DNA of 64,000 nt from Burkholderiales bacterium (GCA_947373745.1 CANBZB010000001.1:2230-66229), one strand, 5' to 3'; shown: positions 896 through 36,159, numbered from the stretch's first letter. Notes: generated by a model from the sequence alone, not told the origin. A program made the numbers and translations.

Positions 896-1070
896 TTATT
901 GCAAATCGGGGATTGAAACGACGATTTGCAAATTTTAGGCGAGAACCATGTATTTCTGCAAGCGTGCGGAGTCAATATGGCTGGCACTGCTCTTGCTTAA
1001 CCCTATGCAAACCTGCCATGAAATCCTTCATTGGCGGGAACTTTTTGACACTTTTAGCAGGAGCTTTGCT

Positions 1071-1689: not shown

Positions 1690-1706
1690 TTGGCACGCGT
1701 TGTGCT
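1690..1706 (+). promoter_or_regulatory. sigma-54 (-24/-12) promoter of the flagellin gene
   Basis: TTGGCACGCGTTGTGCT: TGGCAC with GG-N10-GC spacing, ~47 bp before the flagellin ATG. Confidence 0.75.
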
Positions 1707-1752: not shown

Positions 1753-4700
1753 ATGGCAGTTATTAATACCAACGTCAAAGCATTGTTTTCACAGATGGCT
1801 TTAAACACATCTGGCCGTGCACAAACTGTTGCCATGCAACAGTTGTCTACGGGCAAGCGTATCAACTCGGCTAGAGATGATGCAGCCGGCATGGCAATCG
1901 CAACACGCATGACCCACCAAATTCGCAGCTTGAACCAAGCCGTGCGCAATGCGGGTGATGCGATCTCCTTGATCCAAACCGCTGAGGGTGCGACCAACGA
2001 AATCACAGACATGATGCAACGCATGCGTGAATTGGCTATCCAAGCAGTCAACGACACCAACGATCCACAACAACGTGGTTACTTGGATTTGGAATTCCAA
2101 CAACTCAAACAGCAAATTGTCCAAATTGCCGACAACACGGAGTGGAACGGGTTCCCTGTGTTGAACGGTAAAGCTGGTGAGCAAGTAGGTGAGATGCCTG
2201 TTTACAAGGCCACATCTAATAACCAGTATGGCGACGTATTGTTGAGCCCAACTACTACTCGAGTGATCGAGGGCACTGCTTCTGGTGAGCAGCAAACCAT
2301 TACTTTTGATACAACGGCTATTCCTGCAACTGCTTCAACCATAGAGACTGCGGCAGTAACTTTCCCAACAACAAGTTTGGCTGCAGGAGATTCGATCACT
2401 GTAGCTGGGTTAACTTTCACAGCGACTGCTGCAGTAACAAAATCTCAAATGGGCGATGCTTTCGCTTCACTCGCGAATGGTGCAACTACCGGAGCAAGCA
2501 CTTTAGGTACATACAGTGGAACATTCTCTGGATATACCTCAGGTACCAATACGGCAGGTGTCGTAACTTTCACCAGTGTGGCCCGTGGAAATGTGACCAA
2601 TATTGCATTGAGTGGTTCAGTAACCGCTCCTACTGCAGCCGTTACAGCAGGTGTTTCAGCCACTGGAGGATTTACCGGCACGCGAACATTTAATTTCGCT
2701 GGCGAAACGATCAATTTGCAGTGGGATGCCATTAAGAAGACAGATGAGTCAGGCGTGGATTCTGCGAAGCTGTTGGCTCAAATCAAACAGCAATTGGAAT
2801 CTACAGATAAGTTTGGTACGGGTTCAGGTCGCTCAGTCGCTATCAGCGGAACGAGCTTAGTTTTGACATATGCTGCCAAAGACCAAGATGTCGCAGCTGC
2901 TCAATTAGTAGATGCATCGAACGACGGATTTTTCAAGGTCGGTACGGTTGCTGTAAGTCGCAATGCCATTACGCAAACGGATGAAAACTTTGACAACAAC
3001 GGACGTTTCCTGCGTAGCGGAAACTTGGTTATTGAGCATACCGACACGAATAATGACGGTAGCTTGGATATCAAGGCTGTGTTTACTACCCCTGATAACA
3101 AGAGCGTCAATTTGACGGGTACTTTTGACAGCACCAAAGGCACTGTCAAATTTTTGAAACAAGACGGCATCAACAGTACGGTTATCTCAGACAACCTTAC
3201 TTATGTCATGAAAGACCCTAATGGATCTCCCTTGGATGGAGTTGCATTGGAAAAAAATCTGAATTTACGTAACTTCAAATTGTCAGTTGACGTATCAGGC
3301 AGCATACCTGCGATGCGTGCTGGAGATTTGTTGATTAACGGCGTCGAAATTGGCGGATCTTTTGCAACAGACGATCCTTATTCACCCATCAACAACGCCA
3401 ATGGTTCTGCTATTGCTAAAGCTGCGGCGATCAATCGCAAGGCTTCTGAAGGCAGCGGTCCTGTTGGTGAGTCGCAAGCCATTACCTTCTCGGGTACGCC
3501 TATCCCAGGTGTGATTACCGTGGGTGGTGTCAGCGTTGAACTCACAGCGATGGAAAACACGCCAGCTTTGGCCGTCGCAAAAATTGCAGAAACGATGCGC
3601 AACAGCGCCCAGTTTGGTCAGGGTTCCGGCCGTACGGTTAATTACGCCCCTGGAAGCACCATCATTGGTGTGGACTTTCCCGTCACGGATGGCCAAGTCA
3701 GTGCGATCGACGTGCAGCAACGCGATACCAATTTAGCCAGCGTGACCGATACAACGCGCCAATACAGCTCATCCTCTGCAGGAACTGGCGTATTTGCCAA
3801 GGTGAATGAGAACATCTTCACCGGTAAAGCTATGAGTGGCAATTCTGTTGTCTCAGGCGTTGTATTTATCAACGGTTATGCGTCAGCAAAAATTGAGACC
3901 TTGATGAACAACCCGCGTGATACCCGCGCCAATGTTGTGCGAGCTATCAACCTCATCAGTGACAAAACTGGCGTTGTTGCCGAAGACACAGGTTCAGACC
4001 AATTAGGCGTGACCTTGAAAGCGGCTGACGGCCGTAATATTGAAATTACTTTTGAAACAACCGCTATTGCAAGCGACTTCGGTAACCGAATTGGTATGCG
4101 CGAAGGTGTACAAAGTTCAACCATCTCTTTGGAATCGAAAATTCCAAACGCAGTTGTACTGTCAAGCTCTGCGGTCGGTGACATTTCTCGCGTAGGCTTA
4201 CTCGAAGGAAACTACAGTAAAAATCAAGCAGTGGTCAATTCGAAGGAACGTCCTTTGGTTGATCCATCTGTTAAACAAGTCAGTAGCGCAGCGTTTACTG
4301 GCCCAGCGTTAGTGGGTGATAAATTCACGCTTGTCGTAAACGGCACTGAACACAGCATTACTGCAACAGCTGGACAAACAACACAATCGTTACGCGACGC
4401 AATGGTGACCAAGTTTGCAGCTGACAACGATCAAAACGTCGAAGTTTTGGCAGGTAATACAGTGGGCGAATTCGTCATCCGTGCCAAAACACCAGGACGC
4501 TCTTTCACGGCTGCTACGGCCATGGTGCCCACCACTGGTTCAACTGCAACGGTTTCTTCTGTGAAGACGGTTGTTGCAAATCAGATTGCCCAATTCAAAG
4601 CCTTAGGTGCGGATGACTTAGAAATCAATGGAATAAAAATCCGTGCTACCAATAATGCAGACGATATTTACTCTAACCAAATTGCAAGCAGCAGCAATCC

Positions 4701-6216
4701 AGCGGCCAGTGCCATTGCGATGGCCAAAGCAATCAATACACACACACCAGAAACTGGTGTGCGTGCGATAGCTAATCCCGTAGTATTGAAGGGAAGTTCA
4801 ACTACAACTGGTTCAACCCAGTTGGCAACCTGGGATGCGGCGCCAAATACAGTGAAAGCTGTGAACGAGCCTGTAGGTATTCAGTCTCTCTACCTCAACG
4901 GTACGGAAATCAAGGTTGAGTTCAAAAAGGATGACACGCCCGCTGAACGCCGAATCAATTTAGTTAAAGCTGTCAACACATACAGTGGAACCCACGGCAT
5001 AGTAGCTACCGATAACGGTAAGGGACTCACGCTAGAAGCGACAGATGGTCGAAATGTTTCAGTCTGGTACGACGCCAGTATTGAAGGTTTATCGCCTGCA
5101 AGTTTCGGATTGGATGAGGGCAGTGCCCAAAGTCAAATCTCTAAAGTCAAAATCGGCGGATCATCAGTTAGCACGGGCGATACAGTGACCGTACAAATTA
5201 ACGGCACGACGATCACCACAACAGCAACTTCTGGTGTCACAACGCCAGCCGCAATGGCTACTTTGTTGATGACCGCCATCAATGCCAAGGTGTCTGCAAG
5301 TATCACTTTGGACGCAGACCCTTCTACTTTGGCATCTGCTAAGACACATATGAGCAATTTGATTGCTTATATTGACCCCAACGACTCAACTGCAGTGTTA
5401 GTGCAGTCAAAAGTTCCTGGCTCACCATTCGTCATGCTCGGTGCTTCATCCACGGATGATGCCCAAACTGTCTCCATGGGAACCGTCCAAGAAAACAGTT
5501 TTGGCAATAACCAGATCACCGGTATCGTCGGTGCAACTGAGTCATCCAGCGAAGCGCGTACGGTGTATGGCACCGTTCGCATGATTGCTGAACCGGCACA
5601 TTTGCCAGCGCTGCCTTCCACAGACGGCAAAGCACCTAATTTGACGGGTGTGTCTGGTAAACCAATCAGCATCAACGTCGGTGACGATGGTTTCAGCTCT
5701 GCTAGCAACTTCTCTGACCTAGGCTTCTCTGTGGGAACCTTTGGCGGTCGTTCAAGCTCTGAGATGGATCCACCGCGCGTCGGACGACTGGCCTTCCAAG
5801 TTGGATCATCGGCTCGCCAAATGGTGACCATCGACTTGGCCGACTTCGGTAAAGGCGGACCCATCACTGGTGAAATCACGGGCGACGTAGACAAAGCTGT
5901 TGAGAACCGTACTGTGCGTATCAATACCCGCGACGGCGCAACTGCAGTTTTGAACTTGCTCGACGAAGCGATGGACAAAGTCAACGCAACCCGTGCCACC
6001 ATGGGTGCTGTGATGAACCGTCTAGACCACGTGATCAACAACCTGACCAACGTGTCTATGAATATGTCTGCTTCACGCAGCCAGATTGAAGACGCAGACT
6101 ACGCTTCTTCTTCTACTGAATTGGCCAAAACCCAAATCATGCAGCAAGCAGCGACTGCGGTGTTGGCGCAAGCGAACACCAGCCAACAGTCAGTCTTGAA
6201 GTTGTTAGGTAACTAA
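1753..6216 (+). CDS. fliC: Giant flagellin, 1487 aa
   Basis: N-terminal MAVINTN...LSTGKRINSARDDAAG...AEGA and C-terminal RATMGAVMNRL...SRSQIEDADYA...QQAATAVLAQAN are canonical D0/D1; ~1150-aa central region with repeated 'ING' (flagellin IN-type) modules. Confidence 0.97.
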   Translation: MAVINTNVKALFSQMALNTSGRAQTVAMQQLSTGKRINSARDDAAGMAIATRMTHQIRSLNQAVRNAGDAISLIQTAEGATNEITDMMQRMRELAIQAVNDTNDPQQRGYLDLEFQQLKQQIVQIADNTEWNGFPVLNGKAGEQVGEMPVYKATSNNQYGDVLLSPTTTRVIEGTASGEQQTITFDTTAIPATASTIETAAVTFPTTSLAAGDSITVAGLTFTATAAVTKSQMGDAFASLANGATTGASTLGTYSGTFSGYTSGTNTAGVVTFTSVARGNVTNIALSGSVTAPTAAVTAGVSATGGFTGTRTFNFAGETINLQWDAIKKTDESGVDSAKLLAQIKQQLESTDKFGTGSGRSVAISGTSLVLTYAAKDQDVAAAQLVDASNDGFFKVGTVAVSRNAITQTDENFDNNGRFLRSGNLVIEHTDTNNDGSLDIKAVFTTPDNKSVNLTGTFDSTKGTVKFLKQDGINSTVISDNLTYVMKDPNGSPLDGVALEKNLNLRNFKLSVDVSGSIPAMRAGDLLINGVEIGGSFATDDPYSPINNANGSAIAKAAAINRKASEGSGPVGESQAITFSGTPIPGVITVGGVSVELTAMENTPALAVAKIAETMRNSAQFGQGSGRTVNYAPGSTIIGVDFPVTDGQVSAIDVQQRDTNLASVTDTTRQYSSSSAGTGVFAKVNENIFTGKAMSGNSVVSGVVFINGYASAKIETLMNNPRDTRANVVRAINLISDKTGVVAEDTGSDQLGVTLKAADGRNIEITFETTAIASDFGNRIGMREGVQSSTISLESKIPNAVVLSSSAVGDISRVGLLEGNYSKNQAVVNSKERPLVDPSVKQVSSAAFTGPALVGDKFTLVVNGTEHSITATAGQTTQSLRDAMVTKFAADNDQNVEVLAGNTVGEFVIRAKTPGRSFTAATAMVPTTGSTATVSSVKTVVANQIAQFKALGADDLEINGIKIRATNNADDIYSNQIASSSNPAASAIAMAKAINTHTPETGVRAIANPVVLKGSSTTTGSTQLATWDAAPNTVKAVNEPVGIQSLYLNGTEIKVEFKKDDTPAERRINLVKAVNTYSGTHGIVATDNGKGLTLEATDGRNVSVWYDASIEGLSPASFGLDEGSAQSQISKVKIGGSSVSTGDTVTVQINGTTITTTATSGVTTPAAMATLLMTAINAKVSASITLDADPSTLASAKTHMSNLIAYIDPNDSTAVLVQSKVPGSPFVMLGASSTDDAQTVSMGTVQENSFGNNQITGIVGATESSSEARTVYGTVRMIAEPAHLPALPSTDGKAPNLTGVSGKPISINVGDDGFSSASNFSDLGFSVGTFGGRSSSEMDPPRVGRLAFQVGSSARQMVTIDLADFGKGGPITGEITGDVDKAVENRTVRINTRDGATAVLNLLDEAMDKVNATRATMGAVMNRLDHVINNLTNVSMNMSASRSQIEDADYASSSTELAKTQIMQQAATAVLAQANTSQQSVLKLLGN

Positions 6217-6590: not shown

Positions 6591-6607
6591 CTGGCACGCA
6601 CTTTGCA
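6591..6607 (+). promoter_or_regulatory. sigma-54 (-24/-12) promoter of the activator-fliEFGHIJ operon
   Basis: CTGGCACGCACTTTGCA is a near-perfect match to TGGCACG-N4-TTGCW. Confidence 0.88.
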
Positions 6608-6642: not shown

Positions 6643-8097
6643 GTGATTGCTTCTTCTGTCAACGTTATTCATGCCGTGTGGTTGGACCCATTTAGTCCGA
6701 TCGACGACGCAGATCGCGCCCAGCTAGATGCCGCCGGCATCAGCTTGGAAACTGTTCGTACCCTTGGTGAGCTCACGCTGGCATTGCGCCGCGCGCACAT
6801 GTTGGTCATTCGCTTAGGCGATAGCGCCGAGTTGTTGCAAGAGGTCCAAACGCTCATCGGCCAACTCGGTAACACCGTGCCTGTGCTGTGCCGCGTAGAC
6901 CGCCGCCGTATGGAAGTCGCTGTTGACGCCATGCGTTTAGGTGCATTGCATGTGTTGCCTGCCGACGAATGGACGCCCGCTATTTGGCAAGAAGCGGTGC
7001 AAGGTTTGAATTCCCCAGAACTCACTACTAAGAGCTATGTGTTCGTAGACCCAACTAGCCAACACTTGCTGGCATTGGCACAACGCGTCGCGCAAACTGA
7101 AGTCACCGCTTTATTAGTTGGCCCAACCGGCGCTGGTAAAGAAGTCTTAGCCCGTGTGTTGCACGAATCATCTCCACGCGCCAAAGGCCCGTTTGTAGCC
7201 TTGAACTGCGCAGCGATGCCAGAGCATTTGATCGAAGACATGTTGTTCGGTCACGAGAAAGGCGCTTTTACTGGCGCTTTGAAAGAACACAAAGGTTTGT
7301 TTGAACAAGCCGAAGGTGGCACGATTTTCTTGGACGAGATTGGTGAGATGCCAATGAACTTGCAAGCCAAGTTATTGCGCGTCTTGCAAGAGAAAAAACT
7401 CAACCGTTTAGGCGGTGAGGCATTGATCGACCTGAACGTGCGTGTCATCGCTGCCACCAACAAAGATTTAAAACTGGCGATCGAGCAACGCGAATTCCGT
7501 GAAGACTTGTATTTCCGTATCAGCACATTCCGCTTACGTATTCAGCCTTTGAAAGACCGTCCAGGCGACATCATGCCTTTGGTCATTCAATCGTTGTCAC
7601 GCCACATCAAAGGGGGCTTGCCTTTCACGGTGTCACCCGAAGCCCAAGCCATGTTGGCGAGCTACCCGTGGCCCGGCAATGTGCGTGAATTAGAAAACGT
7701 GGTGCAACGCGCCGTCGTGTTGTGTGGTGGCCGTGTGGTCACTCCAGCACACGTGATGTTTGACGATGCGGGTTTAGACGACCAAGCAGGTTACGCCAGC
7801 CAAATGGAAAACCTCGCGCAAACGATGCCTGCCGTCTCATATGCGCAGCCAACGTATACACAACCCACTTACGCGCAACCCGCGTCAAGTGCACCGATTG
7901 AAATTCGCCCGACTGAAACCCCTGTGAACTTAGAGCACGCCGTGATGGTGAGCGAACAACAGGTGATCATGGCTGCGATCCAAAGTACCGACAGCCGCAT
8001 GGAAGCGGCTGCCAAGTTGGGTATCAGCCCACGCACATTGCGCTACAAGCTCGCACAACTGCGTAGCCGTGGCATGACAGAAGGAGTCGCCGCATGA
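6643..8097 (+). CDS. sigma-54-dependent flagellar activator (FleR/FlrC/FleT/LafK position) with degenerate receiver domain
   Basis: GPTGAGKE Walker A, HEKGAFTGA, FLDEIGEM Walker B, REDLYFR, WPGNVRELEN, C-terminal HTH AAAKLGISPRTLRYKL; directly upstream of fliE. Confidence 0.92.
   Translation: MIASSVNVIHAVWLDPFSPIDDADRAQLDAAGISLETVRTLGELTLALRRAHMLVIRLGDSAELLQEVQTLIGQLGNTVPVLCRVDRRRMEVAVDAMRLGALHVLPADEWTPAIWQEAVQGLNSPELTTKSYVFVDPTSQHLLALAQRVAQTEVTALLVGPTGAGKEVLARVLHESSPRAKGPFVALNCAAMPEHLIEDMLFGHEKGAFTGALKEHKGLFEQAEGGTIFLDEIGEMPMNLQAKLLRVLQEKKLNRLGGEALIDLNVRVIAATNKDLKLAIEQREFREDLYFRISTFRLRIQPLKDRPGDIMPLVIQSLSRHIKGGLPFTVSPEAQAMLASYPWPGNVRELENVVQRAVVLCGGRVVTPAHVMFDDAGLDDQAGYASQMENLAQTMPAVSYAQPTYTQPTYAQPASSAPIEIRPTETPVNLEHAVMVSEQQVIMAAIQSTDSRMEAAAKLGISPRTLRYKLAQLRSRGMTEGVAA
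7840..7881 (+). repeat. 15-bp tandem repeat encoding YAQPT-YTQPT-YAQP linker
   Basis: tatgcgcagccaacg / tatacacaacccact / tacgcgcaaccc between the AAA+ and HTH domains. Confidence 0.65.
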
Positions 8098-11611: not shown

Positions 11612-13040
11612 CCATGTGGTTGCAAAGCGCTCAGGCATTGCTTGGCAGCCCGGATCTCAGCTGCACTTGCGTCGTTCTGAGTTGGGGTATGACACGACTG
11701 CTTGGGGCGAAGACACGCCGCAAGAATTTTCTGATGCGCCGTATCCGGAAAATCCAGATGGCTTCGCCACCGATGCGTATACATCGGTTACGCAAACACT
11801 GACTGAACAAGCCAGGCTGTCTTTGGCCTTATTGCAAGAGCAAGAGGCACAAGCGAGTTTTGATAGCAACCTGACGCCTGCGAAAACAAGTGCATCTGTG
11901 AATGCGCATTTGCCTTTTGTGATGGACGATTACGCTGCAGCAAAACGCATCAAGGTTTTGTTAGCAAAAGGTTTACTAGATAAAACTAGCACAGGACGGT
12001 TCGTAGATGATCTGTTCGTTACAAAAACTGGTTTTAAATCGGACGGCGAAGAATTGAATACACCGCCAACGCACTTGGAGGCTACACAAGAGGCCCTAGA
12101 TGCAGTGTTGGACGACGCGGACGCGGTACCTGAGCAAACTACCGAAGAACAGCAAGAAGAGCTGGGAGTTGTTGCAGAAGTCAGTGGTATTTCTTTAGAA
12201 GAAATCGTGCAACGCGAACAAGCGCAGTTTGCCAAAGGGCTGGCCCAAGGAATGGAAGAAGGGAAGTCTTTAGGCTTTGAACAAGGTAAGACGCAAGGCA
12301 TAGAAGAGGGCAAGGCGCTAGGCTTTGAAACAGGTAAAGCGCAGGGCATTGAGGAAGGTAAGGGCCAAGGTTTAGAGGAAGCTATACAAGAGGCGTTAGA
12401 AAAAGGTAAAGCCCAAGGTCTTGAGGAAGGAATCGCCCAAGGCATAGCGCAAGGCGAACGCCAAGCCCGCGAGGCAATGGAGCAAGAAGTCGCGACGCAA
12501 TGCGAGGTGCTCTCGCAGGTGGCAGAAGGCTTGCATGACTTGCTACAAGACCCTCAACGGTTTTTTAATCCATTGAAGCGCTTGGCCATGCATATGGCGC
12601 AGCATATTGCTAAGCATGAGTTGAGTATTTCACCGCAAGCAATCGATGCGTTGGTGCAAAACTGCTTGAATGAACTAGACCACCCCATCAAAGGCGCGGT
12701 GGTAGTGGAGCTCAATCCACAAGATAAAAAATTACTAGAAACGTTGGCTACAGCTAATTTACAGGGTGTACACCTAGAAGCTGTGCCCCAATTGACGTCT
12801 GGCAGTGTGCGCGTGATTGCCAACGATATGGTGGTGGAAGACTTGATAGAAAACCGGCTTGAAGCTTTGGTCAAAAGTTTGGCGCTCCAAGAAGTCGCAC
12901 CCCGTGCAGCAACACACATAGAAGCGGAGCTTCAAAAGGAATCTACGGAATCTTCTGAAGAAATATCTTTTGAGCCGTCTTTTGAGGCCGACGAACAGAT
13001 TAAAAAAGATGATGGAGAGGTAGAAGATGTTCATTCCTGA
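11604..13040 (+). CDS. fliH: Flagellar assembly protein FliH, unusually long (~478 aa)
   Basis: GxxxG repeat tract (KGLAQGMEEGKSLGFEQGK...), C-terminal VELNPQD...LTSGSVRV; ATG at 11604 overlaps the fliG stop; lies between fliG and fliI. Confidence 0.85.
   Translation: MYNHVVAKRSGIAWQPGSQLHLRRSELGYDTTAWGEDTPQEFSDAPYPENPDGFATDAYTSVTQTLTEQARLSLALLQEQEAQASFDSNLTPAKTSASVNAHLPFVMDDYAAAKRIKVLLAKGLLDKTSTGRFVDDLFVTKTGFKSDGEELNTPPTHLEATQEALDAVLDDADAVPEQTTEEQQEELGVVAEVSGISLEEIVQREQAQFAKGLAQGMEEGKSLGFEQGKTQGIEEGKALGFETGKAQGIEEGKGQGLEEAIQEALEKGKAQGLEEGIAQGIAQGERQAREAMEQEVATQCEVLSQVAEGLHDLLQDPQRFFNPLKRLAMHMAQHIAKHELSISPQAIDALVQNCLNELDHPIKGAVVVELNPQDKKLLETLATANLQGVHLEAVPQLTSGSVRVIANDMVVEDLIENRLEALVKSLALQEVAPRAATHIEAELQKESTESSEEISFEPSFEADEQIKKDDGEVEDVHS
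12256..12360 (+). repeat. 48-bp tandem duplication within the FliH GxxxG tract
   Basis: EEGKSLGFEQGKTQGI / EEGKALGFETGKAQGI / EEGK; boundaries approximate. Confidence 0.6.
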
Positions 13041-13674
13041 CGTCATCAATACTTTATTGATGGGTTTGATTTTCATGGTCATTGTGGTGACCGTGGTACG
13101 CCCGTTTGTGCTGCACATCGTCAACGGTTCAATGTCCACGGAAGACTTGCAAAAAGAAGCGATTGAAACCGTTCAGCAAGAAATGATGCGTGTCAGTATT
13201 TTGGCTGAAGCGCAGCGCAACGAACAAATTCGCTTTCAGCAATTGCTCTTAGAAGTTCCAGAAAAACCAAAACCCAAACCAGTCCCTGAAATCGATCTGG
13301 AGGCGGAAGAAGCCAAGGCCAAAGAAGAAGCAGAGGCGCACGCACAAGCGCTGGCCGATGCGGCAGCCGCTGAAGCGCAAGCAGCAGAGGCAGTTGAAGA
13401 ATCTGCGGCTGAAGGCGAGGAATCCATCGCAGAAGGCGAAGCGGTAGAAGAAACAGCAAGCACCGAAATTGTGATGCAAGAAGGTGAGTCATTGGCTGAT
13501 GTGAAGGCGCGTATGAAGCGCGAACAAGCCAAAGCCAAGAAACCCACGATTCCGCCAGAGTTACTGAACAACGCCAACAGCTACGAAGACAAAGTAGGCG
13601 TGGTGCGCATGGTGGTGCAAAATGACCAAAGCCGCGTGGCCAGCGTGATCCGCAGCATGATCCAAACGCAATAA
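13027..13674 (+). CDS. Stand-alone paralogue of the FliF C-terminal region (TM + FliG-binding tail), 'mini-FliF'
   Basis: G.IF.....VVRP.V TM motif and the last ~62 aa align to this locus's own FliF; GGAGAGG RBS; ATG overlaps the end of fliH. Confidence 0.88.
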   Translation: MFIPDVINTLLMGLIFMVIVVTVVRPFVLHIVNGSMSTEDLQKEAIETVQQEMMRVSILAEAQRNEQIRFQQLLLEVPEKPKPKPVPEIDLEAEEAKAKEEAEAHAQALADAAAAEAQAAEAVEESAAEGEESIAEGEAVEETASTEIVMQEGESLADVKARMKREQAKAKKPTIPPELLNNANSYEDKVGVVRMVVQNDQSRVASVIRSMIQTQ

Positions 13675-35338: not shown

Positions 35339-36159
35339 GTGCGGTAGTCGCTGGCATTGGGCTTTTGCTTGCAATTATTTTGCAAGTCAACAAGGTGCAA
35401 CAAGCGGCGATATTTTTGGCCTTCAATGCTGCCACAGTTGACAACCCGCAGCTATGGGCAGGTCTAACTTTTTTAGGCGATACCGCAGTCATGTTGTGTG
35501 TGATGGCACCTGTATTGCTGATGCGGCCTAGCATTTGGGTTGCTATCTTGTGCGCCATTCCAGCAGGAGGACTCACTTCTCTGACACTGAAATGGTTTTT
35601 TGATGCGCCACGTCCTGCCGATGTATTGGCGTTGACAGACTTTCATGTTGTTGGTTCTGTGTTGCGTGGTCACAGTTTCCCATCTGGGCACACTATCACC
35701 GCGTTTGCAGCGGCTGGTGTAGTGTGGGCTTGCGTATGGTTTGTGCAAAGAAAAAACTTAACAAATCAGAGCTCTGCGGCTATTCAAGAAAGCAATTCAA
35801 ATTTGCATGTGTTGGCATGGTCAGCGCTAGCTCTGGTGTTTCTTATCGCTGTTTTAGTGGGTGTATCGCGTATAGCTGTGGGCGCACATTGGCCATTTGA
35901 TGTGTTGGCTGGCGCATGTGTAGGTTGGTTAGCTGGACTCCATGGTGCTTACATCGCGCACCGTTGGCACAGTGCTTGGCACACCACCAAGAGCATTTGG
36001 TTATTGCATTTCTTATGTTGCGCCCTTAGTTTGGATCTGCTCAATAGAACCTTTGAAGAACCTGTCGGCGTTTATATGCTGTGGCTGGGCGTTGTCTTCG
36101 CATGGGGTGCACTGACGGTGAAATGTTTGCAAGCAATAATTTCTGCGGGTAAACATTAA
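35335..36159 (+). CDS. PAP2-family phosphatase
   Basis: K..FDAPRP, SFPSGH, SRIAVGAHWPFDVLAG catalytic motifs. Confidence 0.92.
   Translation: MSAVVAGIGLLLAIILQVNKVQQAAIFLAFNAATVDNPQLWAGLTFLGDTAVMLCVMAPVLLMRPSIWVAILCAIPAGGLTSLTLKWFFDAPRPADVLALTDFHVVGSVLRGHSFPSGHTITAFAAAGVVWACVWFVQRKNLTNQSSAAIQESNSNLHVLAWSALALVFLIAVLVGVSRIAVGAHWPFDVLAGACVGWLAGLHGAYIAHRWHSAWHTTKSIWLLHFLCCALSLDLLNRTFEEPVGVYMLWLGVVFAWGALTVKCLQAIISAGKH

Follow-up and report, generated by a model that had tools for sequence, protein, structure and literature searches.

How does a bacterial flagellin come to be 1487 amino acids (aa) long, and which part of a filament would such a protein build? The question is raised by a gene near the start of a 64,000-nucleotide stretch of DNA from Burkholderiales bacterium (GCA_947373745.1 CANBZB010000001.1:2230-66229; hereafter the window), which a preliminary description had read as encoding a giant flagellin made of duplicated modules, one of them nested in another. 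The matches of its termini to Pfam families, the comparison of its module pairs and an alignment of the junctions around the nested module all bore this reading out. Our analysis indicated that the core of the protein corresponds to a duplicated region already known from marine giant flagellins, and that it is very probably, judging from its sequence and that of its relatives, a functional filament subunit of a Limnohabitans-like freshwater betaproteobacterium. Flagellins of more than 1000 aa have a scattered distribution among phyla (Thomson et al. 2018, PMC6248924), and their occurrence in marine gammaproteobacteria, mentioned in the preliminary description, is accurate according to that survey. 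The filaments that Bermanella and Oleibacter make from such proteins (1020 and 1190 aa, each the sole annotated flagellin of its genome) have a width of 30 nm or more, against 24 nm in Salmonella. These Oceanospirillales proteins contain a tandemly duplicated region, termed DE, and a later insert, DX, whose homologues were found only among Oceanospirillales flagellins (PMC6248924).

The predicted product (153.9 kDa, pI 4.99, no cysteine, 21% Ser+Thr) matched the Pfam families Flagellin_N (PF00669) over aa 4-140 (E 2.7e-37; 128.4 bits, cut-off 26.6) and Flagellin_C (PF00700) over aa 1401-1485 (E 1.7e-23; 83.2 bits, cut-off 23). No Pfam family was found between the two, and the matches of the NCBIfam flagellin models were confined to both ends of the protein. 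The model for the paralogous hook-filament junction protein FlgL (TIGR02550) scored 115.3 bits, under its cut-off of 127.2, and the true FlgL of the source genome is encoded elsewhere (267.8 bits); the giant flagellin is distinct from it. Its best sequence matches in the PDB were flagellins, over domains D0/D1 only, and nothing outside D0/D1 was retrieved from the PDB with sequence profiles of the family and of the B-C-D modules described below. These results indicated a bacterial flagellin of the FliC/FlaA family with both helical termini intact. A flagellinolysin or other enzymatic flagellin was considered and rejected, as no peptidase family was matched on fragments of the protein even at E values up to 10 (Pfam); no HExxH motif was found on reading the translation, and Pfam revealed no domain of a lectin, an enzyme or a known adhesin in the whole protein or its fragments.

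Module boundaries were set with hidden Markov models (HMMs) built from the family alignment, which gave the order D0/D1 - R - A1 - X - B1 - [A2] - C1 - D1 - B2 - C2 - D2 - Y - D1/D0, where the inner D1 is a module and the outer ones the flagellin domain. The gene, an open reading frame (ORF), and its parts are as follows, dN/dS being the ratio of nonsynonymous to synonymous substitution rates and hhalign the program used for profile-profile comparison:

1753-6216, plus strand: giant flagellin gene, uninterrupted ORF, 1487 aa
1753-2184, plus strand: N-terminal D0/D1 helical region, aa 1-144 (Pfam Flagellin_N; dN/dS 0.032)
2341-2649, plus strand: module R, aa 197-299, Ser+Thr content 33%, tandem copy number 0-5 within the family
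2683-2964, plus strand: module A1, aa 311-404, motif FGTGSGRSV (hhalign against A2)
2965-3309, plus strand: module X, aa 405-519, beta-rich (module HMM E 1e-47; AlphaFold2 secondary structure)
3310-3462, plus strand: B1, aa 520-570, first half of DE region 1 (DE HMM match)
3463-3795, plus strand: A2, aa ~571-681, copy of module A inside DE region 1 (junction alignment)
3796-4260, plus strand: C1, aa 682-836, second half of DE region 1 and tail (DE HMM)
4261-4587, plus strand: module D1, aa 837-945, between DE regions 1 and 2 (hhalign against D2; module HMM)
4588-5118, plus strand: B2-C2, aa 946-1122 (B2 946-1012, C2 1013-1122), uninterrupted DE region 2
5119-5502, plus strand: module D2, aa 1123-1250, 30% Ser+Thr, the most variable module
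5503-5772, plus strand: module Y, aa 1251-1340, conserved, leading back to domain D1 (module HMM)
5773-6216, plus strand: C-terminal D1/D0 helical region, aa 1341-1487, and stop codon (Pfam Flagellin_C)

The preliminary description had proposed four module pairs, A to D, and all four were recovered where it had placed them, far above chance by two measures. Within the single sequence, windowed Smith-Waterman local alignments were scored against shuffles, and the strongest signal came from pair C (672-792 with 1015-1130, score 116, z 12.9, p ~2e-8, 32% identity), followed by B (520-566 with 950-1000, z 6.0), D (842-886 with 1128-1170, z 4.4) and A (338-382 with 605-651, z 4.2). When slices of a 55-sequence family alignment were compared with the whole alignment by hhalign, the E values were 2e-13 for A (311-404 with 586-670), 7.5e-10 for B (520-569 with 950-1003), 7e-11 to 3e-14 for C (673-770 with 996-1109) and 1e-10 for D (837-944 with 1123-1249). 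The concern that the repeats might not be significant was therefore put to rest by z values of 4.2-12.9 and profile-profile E values of at most 7.5e-10. A self-BLASTP of the protein gave no off-diagonal high-scoring segment pairs. The same profiles revealed a weaker cross-similarity among B, C and D (B2-C2 and B2-D2, ~75% probability), which, together with unit R and the correspondence of B-C with a published domain, goes beyond what the preliminary description contained.

That correspondence emerged from an HMM built on 15 DE sequences of the S4 alignment of PMC6248924, which matched the giant flagellin with an overall E of 2.2e-55. HMM positions 8-140 aligned end-to-end over B2-C2 (aa 949-1105, E 4.2e-29), and the match in the first unit fell into two pieces, positions 6-50 at B1 (hit aa 517-617, E 1.9e-17) and positions 50-143 at C1 (aa 673-769, E 1.3e-22), with the break exactly at A2. 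Because the DE model covers B2-C2 fully and the first unit in two pieces, the core is the known tandem-DE architecture: the B-C unit is the published DE region, with DE1 formed by B1 and C1, split by A2, and DE2 by B2-C2. On the question whether the architecture matches an already characterised family, which the preliminary description had raised against its own proposal, the answer is therefore divided: the B-C unit does, at the overall E value just given, but the nested A2 and the extra modules are new. Two further candidates, that Y is a displaced tail of DE2 and that D2 is nested in DE2, found no support, as full-length DE HMMs end at about aa 1157.

Alignment of the junctions confirmed the claim that A2 interrupts B1-C1 and that B2-C2 is contiguous. 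About 110 residues (~571-681) are inserted precisely between '...AAAINRKASE' and 'TGVFAKVNEN...'. All giants that contain A have this insert. It is lacking in the second unit of the giant flagellin itself (B2-C2), in relatives of 825-1130 aa (loci L057, L039, L047 and L054), in the 730-aa B-C-B-C flagellin P0170 and in the B-C-D-B-C-D proteins P0125, P0132 and P0140. An AlphaFold2 model of aa 145-1340, computed with the family alignment, reached a mean pLDDT (predicted local distance difference test) of 78 and a pTM (predicted template modelling score) of 0.46, the latter as expected for a beads-on-a-string arrangement, with a single low-confidence linker at aa 797-825; the isolated B2-C2-D2 piece gave a pLDDT of 81 and a pTM of 0.64. 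In these models B, C and D were each predicted as a hairpin-helix-strand alpha/beta unit, B1 comprising a hairpin (DLLINGVEI) and a helix (SAIAKAAAIN) and C1 bearing the motifs TGVFAKV..., FINGY... and LKAADGRNIEI. In the second unit the strand VRAIA (1003-1007) comes immediately after the helix (aa 987-1001), whereas in the first the helix (553-565) and the strand VFAKV (680-684) are split by A2, itself a compact beta-beta-alpha-beta-beta-beta unit (pLDDT ~84-90). A2 thus lies within another structural unit, DE region 1, as the preliminary description had proposed.

Structural relatives of the models were found by Foldseek as local matches only (~110-145 residues, 8-23% identity, E 3e-5 to 4e-2). 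Those with a probability of ~1.0 were the sheath of cyanophage A-1(L) (8kee), Sphingomonas p5 (2zbi/3k8v) and Helicobacter pylori FlaA, and those with 0.80-0.94 were domains D2/D3 of Pseudomonas aeruginosa PAO1 FliC (8erm/8sug) and H. pylori FliD (6iwy); H. pylori FlaA/FlaB (9ygu/9yh1) and phage baseplate decoration domains were also matched. None of the solved flagellins has the number or order of domains of the window flagellin; the largest flagellin structure reported is that of Geovibrio thiophilus (PMC11532411), in which the chain has 793 aa (9au6). Modules B, C and D share with the Flagellin_IN family (PF07196) a pattern '...INGxxI ... AIN ... TGVxA', and Pfam was run on six fragments of the protein at E values up to 10. 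The direct matches to PF07196 (14.5 bits, E 0.042, and 9.8 bits) fell under the cut-off of 22.7, the best covering residues 12-37 of the fragment 4291-4530 (aa ~858-883), and the remaining matches were noise. Three proteins with strong matches to the B-C-D profile (P0221, P0164 and P0172) are clear PF07196 members (E 1e-61 to 3e-23), so that kinship of the modules to this family is supported, by sequence, only through intermediates.

Compared with the Oceanospirillales giants (Bermanella marisrubri Q1N2Y3 and Oleibacter marinus), the window flagellin is alike in exceeding 1000 aa, in having two tandem DE regions with extra sequence between them and in having evolved, as it seems, through duplication followed by insertion; module D1 sits where those proteins have the DX insert, a likeness of position. 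It differs in being betaproteobacterial and freshwater rather than gammaproteobacterial and marine, in being 300-450 aa longer, in a further type of event, the nesting of a domain in DE1, and in carrying D after both DE regions, an N-proximal R, A1 and X, and variable copy number. No betaproteobacterial giant is named in the text of the PMC6248924 survey, and a term search of a truncated copy of its table returned betaproteobacterial entries of at most 945 aa, including a 755-aa Limnohabitans entry. New with respect to that work are thus the nesting of A2, modules D, R, A and X, the freshwater Burkholderiales family and its conserved sigma-54 promoter. In a joint tree of the gammaproteobacterial first and second halves and the betaproteobacterial position-1 and position-2 units, the gammaproteobacterial halves interleaved.

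The giant flagellin belongs to a large family. A word-indexed search with the variable region retrieved at least 550 clusters at 90% identity, flagellins of 1300-1890 aa that are 93% to 47% identical to it; the few named sources were Oxalobacteraceae or Burkholderiaceae. On genome contigs the family was found in metagenome-assembled genomes (MAGs) of freshwater Burkholderiales and in two isolates, Limnohabitans sp. Jir61 (locus L025, 1330 aa) and JirII-31 (L033, 1432 aa); the closest match (93% identity) came from a Limnohabitans MAG. In a census of 172 family proteins with the module HMMs, 106 had the architecture A-X-B-A-C-D-B-C-D-Y and 13 that of the window, with one R unit; R ranged from none (1389-aa forms) through four copies (P0006) to five. 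An exhaustive profile search with B2-C2-D2 extended to 846 clusters at 50% identity, 145 of them at E up to 1e-30, and the commonest architecture among its best matches was n-B-C-B-C-c, in proteins of 700-1000 aa. Module Y also occurs in short B-C-B-C-Y relatives. Outside the flagellins, we observed 20 tandem D units after Cadherin_5/Big_9 in P0229 (2906 aa; JGI label 'phage tail sheath gpL-like') and many B/C units, without flagellin termini, in P0221 (4566 aa), a Bdellovibrionota 'flagellin hook IN motif-containing protein'.

In a tree of C modules, position-1 and position-2 copies separated with 97/93 support, and short and giant forms fell on both sides. Since the tree mixes short and giant proteins within each position, the B-C duplication is older than the A insertion and the D additions. 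The architectures of the relatives (short ones B-C-B-C, intermediates B-C-D-B-C-D lacking A) and the tree together suggest an order of events. The DE region B-C, which itself looks like two 'IN-motif'-like hairpin-helix-strand units, would have been duplicated in tandem before the short and giant forms of the family split; D modules would then have been added after each DE region, a copy of module A would have been inserted in DE1 between the helix and the next strand, and the N-proximal R, A1 and X would have been added, with R remaining variable in copy number.

Selection on the modules was estimated by computing dN/dS for each against one 93%-identical orthologue. Values ranged from 0.012 to 0.079 in every module (0.047 overall), with B1 (0.012), X (0.014) and A2 (0.018) at the low end, the polymerisation domains D0/D1 at 0.02-0.03, and D2 highest (0.079). 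A2, B1 and X are as constrained as D0/D1, and all modules are under strong purifying selection, from which we conclude that the protein is likely functional and that structure or function constrains its surface domains, which do not form a classical hypervariable region.

Flagellin genes are usually transcribed from a sigma-28 (FliA) promoter. Early flagellins of polar flagellates that depend on sigma-54 include Vibrio cholerae FlaA and Campylobacter/Helicobacter FlaB. Upstream of the giant flagellin gene we found an element of the sigma-54 type, and the gene heads the flagellar cluster, within the flagellar regulon:

1691-1706, plus strand: -24/-12 element (GG-N10-GC) of the sigma-54 type, TGGCACGCGTTGTGCT, 62 nt before the flagellin start codon
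6245-6577, plus strand: conserved 110-aa ORF with four cysteines (CWDC...SCK...FCSG), 29 nt past the flagellin stop
6592-6607, plus strand: second sigma-54 element, upstream of the activator gene
6643-8097, plus strand: sigma-54-dependent activator (AAA+ domain and Fis-type helix-turn-helix), with its own sigma-54 element
13027-13674, plus strand: 215-aa ORF between fliH and fliI, no family match

The pattern TGGCAC-N5-KTGCW had 4 matches in the window, against 0.57 expected, and a sigma-54 element precedes 38 of the 41 giant-type genes, at 59-65 or 89-91 nt; a sigma-28 motif was found at none of the 41. The two other exact matches in the window lie at 982-997 (plus strand, inside an upstream tetratricopeptide repeat ORF) and at 35504-35519 (plus strand, far downstream). 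After the activator follow fliE, fliF, fliG, fliH, the 215-aa ORF, fliI and fliJ ... fliR, flhB. Neither Pfam nor NCBIfam gave a match for the 110-aa Cys ORF, which in 49 fetched loci (50-94% identity) comes immediately after the sigma-54 flagellin gene; it is probably co-transcribed with the flagellin and could be a flagellin-specific partner or regulator.

Related genomes hold flagellins of a second kind. In a complete genome of the same genus (G008), flgL, fliD and two fliC genes (724 and 703 aa) follow one another, and the giant flagellin gene is on a separate contig; both fliC products are B-C-B-C, and the upstream regions of both genes carry sigma-28-type promoters (TCAAGTTT-N11-ACCGAAT). 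For four mid-size B-C-B-C paralogues linked to fliD or near it, the sole motif was of this type (TCAAG/TAAAG...CCGA(A/T)(A/T)). A sigma-54 giant and a sigma-28 flagellin coexist in three relatives (G008, L018 and L037), and most same-genus genomes with a giant flagellin also have other flagellins. The closest relative bears a second giant-type gene (L076, G005:C9:46000-52634, ~4546 onward, plus strand), broken by a run of N and the contig end and preceded by a sigma-54-like TGGAATAGATATTGCT, so that two giant copies per genome are possible. At three loci (L044, L047 and L049) a ~736-aa flagellin (B-C-B-C-Y) adjoins a ~1360-aa one (R-R-R-R-B-C-B-C) on the opposite strand; sigma-54 motifs occur at both members, accompanied at two of the 736-aa genes by a sigma-28-like motif, from which it follows that the regulation of flagellin paralogues is not uniform in the clade.

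The source assembly (199 contigs, ~90% complete) contains FliA and FliS, and its Flagellin_N matches are the giant flagellin and FlgL only. The contig with flgK-flgL-fliD (C126) ends inside fliD, where relatives carry mid-size flagellin genes. We had considered that FliD was absent from this genome and rejected this, since its N-terminus was found at the cut end of C126 (L002 1-390, minus strand, the start of that contig in G000), which makes the seeming lack of FliD_C an artefact of the assembly; a claim that the giant is the sole flagellin was likewise downgraded, as the contig stops inside fliD.

How, then, might the protein be used? We lean, with slightly better than even confidence, towards a functional subunit of the filament that is produced early, does not depend on FliA and likely forms a thick hook-proximal segment or the whole filament. 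The conserved D0/D1 termini would polymerise into the filament core, and the ~1200 residues between them, about eleven small alpha/beta and beta-rich modules, would form a thick outer layer on it; transcription would start from the sigma-54 promoter, presumably via the activator whose gene lies shortly downstream. Where a genome also has sigma-28-driven DE-DE flagellins of middle size, the giant would be the early, proximal subunit, and where no other flagellin exists it would make up the whole filament. We infer incorporation, thickness, early expression and proximal position alike, the last two by analogy with Shewanella, in which a FliA-independent flagellin accumulates before hook completion, is the first to be exported and forms a hook-proximal segment (PMC6299084). 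As in the Shewanella putrefaciens FlaA type, there is one sigma-54-type flagellin, with sigma-28 paralogues here in related genomes; an activator gene adjoining the flagellin is a feature of the window locus. The paired flagellins of Shewanella and the other polar flagellates named above are nearly equal in size, unlike those considered here, where the sigma-54 flagellin is about twice the size of the sigma-28 ones and has 600-700 extra surface residues. In the source organism itself, a hook-proximal role is a fair guess by this analogy, with chances somewhat short of even. A two-part filament across Limnohabitans and freshwater Burkholderiales, with a thick sigma-54 proximal 'collar' of 1300-1900 aa subunits and a thinner distal propeller of sigma-28 ~700-aa DE-DE subunits, is a tentative and rather unlikely extension of it.

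Several observations weigh against the reading that we favour. No second flagellin, not even a mid-size fragment, was found in the source assembly, and the idea of a proximal segment draws on the relatives and on the contig break inside fliD. The sigma-54 dependence of the giant flagellin promoter is probable, as judged from motif matches, and sigma-54 motifs are also present at a number of short orthologues and neighbouring paralogues (B-C-B-C, ~740-830 aa), so that such control would not be specific to giant size. The nesting of A2 in three dimensions is deduced from sequence and predicted secondary structure. Finally, all cultured Limnohabitans have been scored non-motile although flagellar genes belong to the core genome (bioRxiv 10.1101/839407), so that neither motility nor a filament has yet been observed in this genus. 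The reported lack of motility also speaks for a protein that forms no filament at all, be it an exoprotein that leaves the cell via the flagellar export apparatus or a remnant in a non-swimming lineage, as does a size very large for an export channel of ~2 nm; nevertheless, we consider this very improbable, given the low dN/dS (0.02-0.03 on D0/D1, 0.047 overall), the intact ORF in at least 550 clusters, the conservation of promoter, downstream ORF and flagellar context, and the existence of giants of ~1000-1200 aa that are proven filament subunits (PMC6248924).

A stronger competitor, to which we give a real though minority chance, is that the giant is the sole or major flagellin and builds the whole filament, uniformly thick as in B. 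marisrubri and O. marinus, with no segments. It is the only flagellin found in the ~90%-complete genome, where the other Flagellin_N match is FlgL, and the sole giants of 1020 and 1190 aa, with their filaments of at least 30 nm, offer a precedent (PMC6248924). However, the flgK-flgL-fliD contig stops inside fliD, at the site of the relatives' mid-size flagellin genes, most giant-bearing genomes of the genus hold other flagellins, and in Shewanella the FliA-independent promoter alone leads to short filament stubs only (PMC6299084). It should also be considered that the enlarged surface might, as the preliminary description had suggested, serve as an adaptive coat, acting as an adhesin or protecting against flagellotropic phages or protist grazers at any position in the filament. 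The sharing of D and B/C modules with the non-flagellin giant surface proteins P0229 and P0221, the Foldseek matches to phage sheath and baseplate decoration domains, the difference in R copy number between close relatives and the Ser+Thr content of R and D2 (30-33%), possible glycosylation surfaces, would all fit such a coat. Purifying selection on all modules (dN/dS 0.012-0.079) argues against escape via sequence changes, domains of lectins, enzymes or known adhesins were not found in the protein by Pfam, and no glycosylation genes were found in the annotated part of the window, so that we regard it as improbable; moreover, it names a benefit rather than a mechanism and is compatible with an early-made filament subunit.

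Nothing in these results overturns current views, since the core architecture and the route of duplication plus insertion were published in 2018. They extend giant flagellins to freshwater betaproteobacteria, including Limnohabitans, a key bacterioplankton genus, and the family offers an unusually complete series of intermediates, from DE-DE and DE-D-DE-D to a domain nested in DE1 and 0-5 R units, all strongly constrained, in which flagellin outer domains exemplify how a self-assembling protein gains surface modules while still polymerising. If the two-part filament were true, it would be the first case of spatially ordered flagellins differing about twofold in mass, and it would reveal a flagellum in an abundant lake genus scored non-motile in culture. 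The split between a sigma-54 giant and sigma-28 mid-size flagellins thus provides a testable hypothesis of filaments that may vary along their length.

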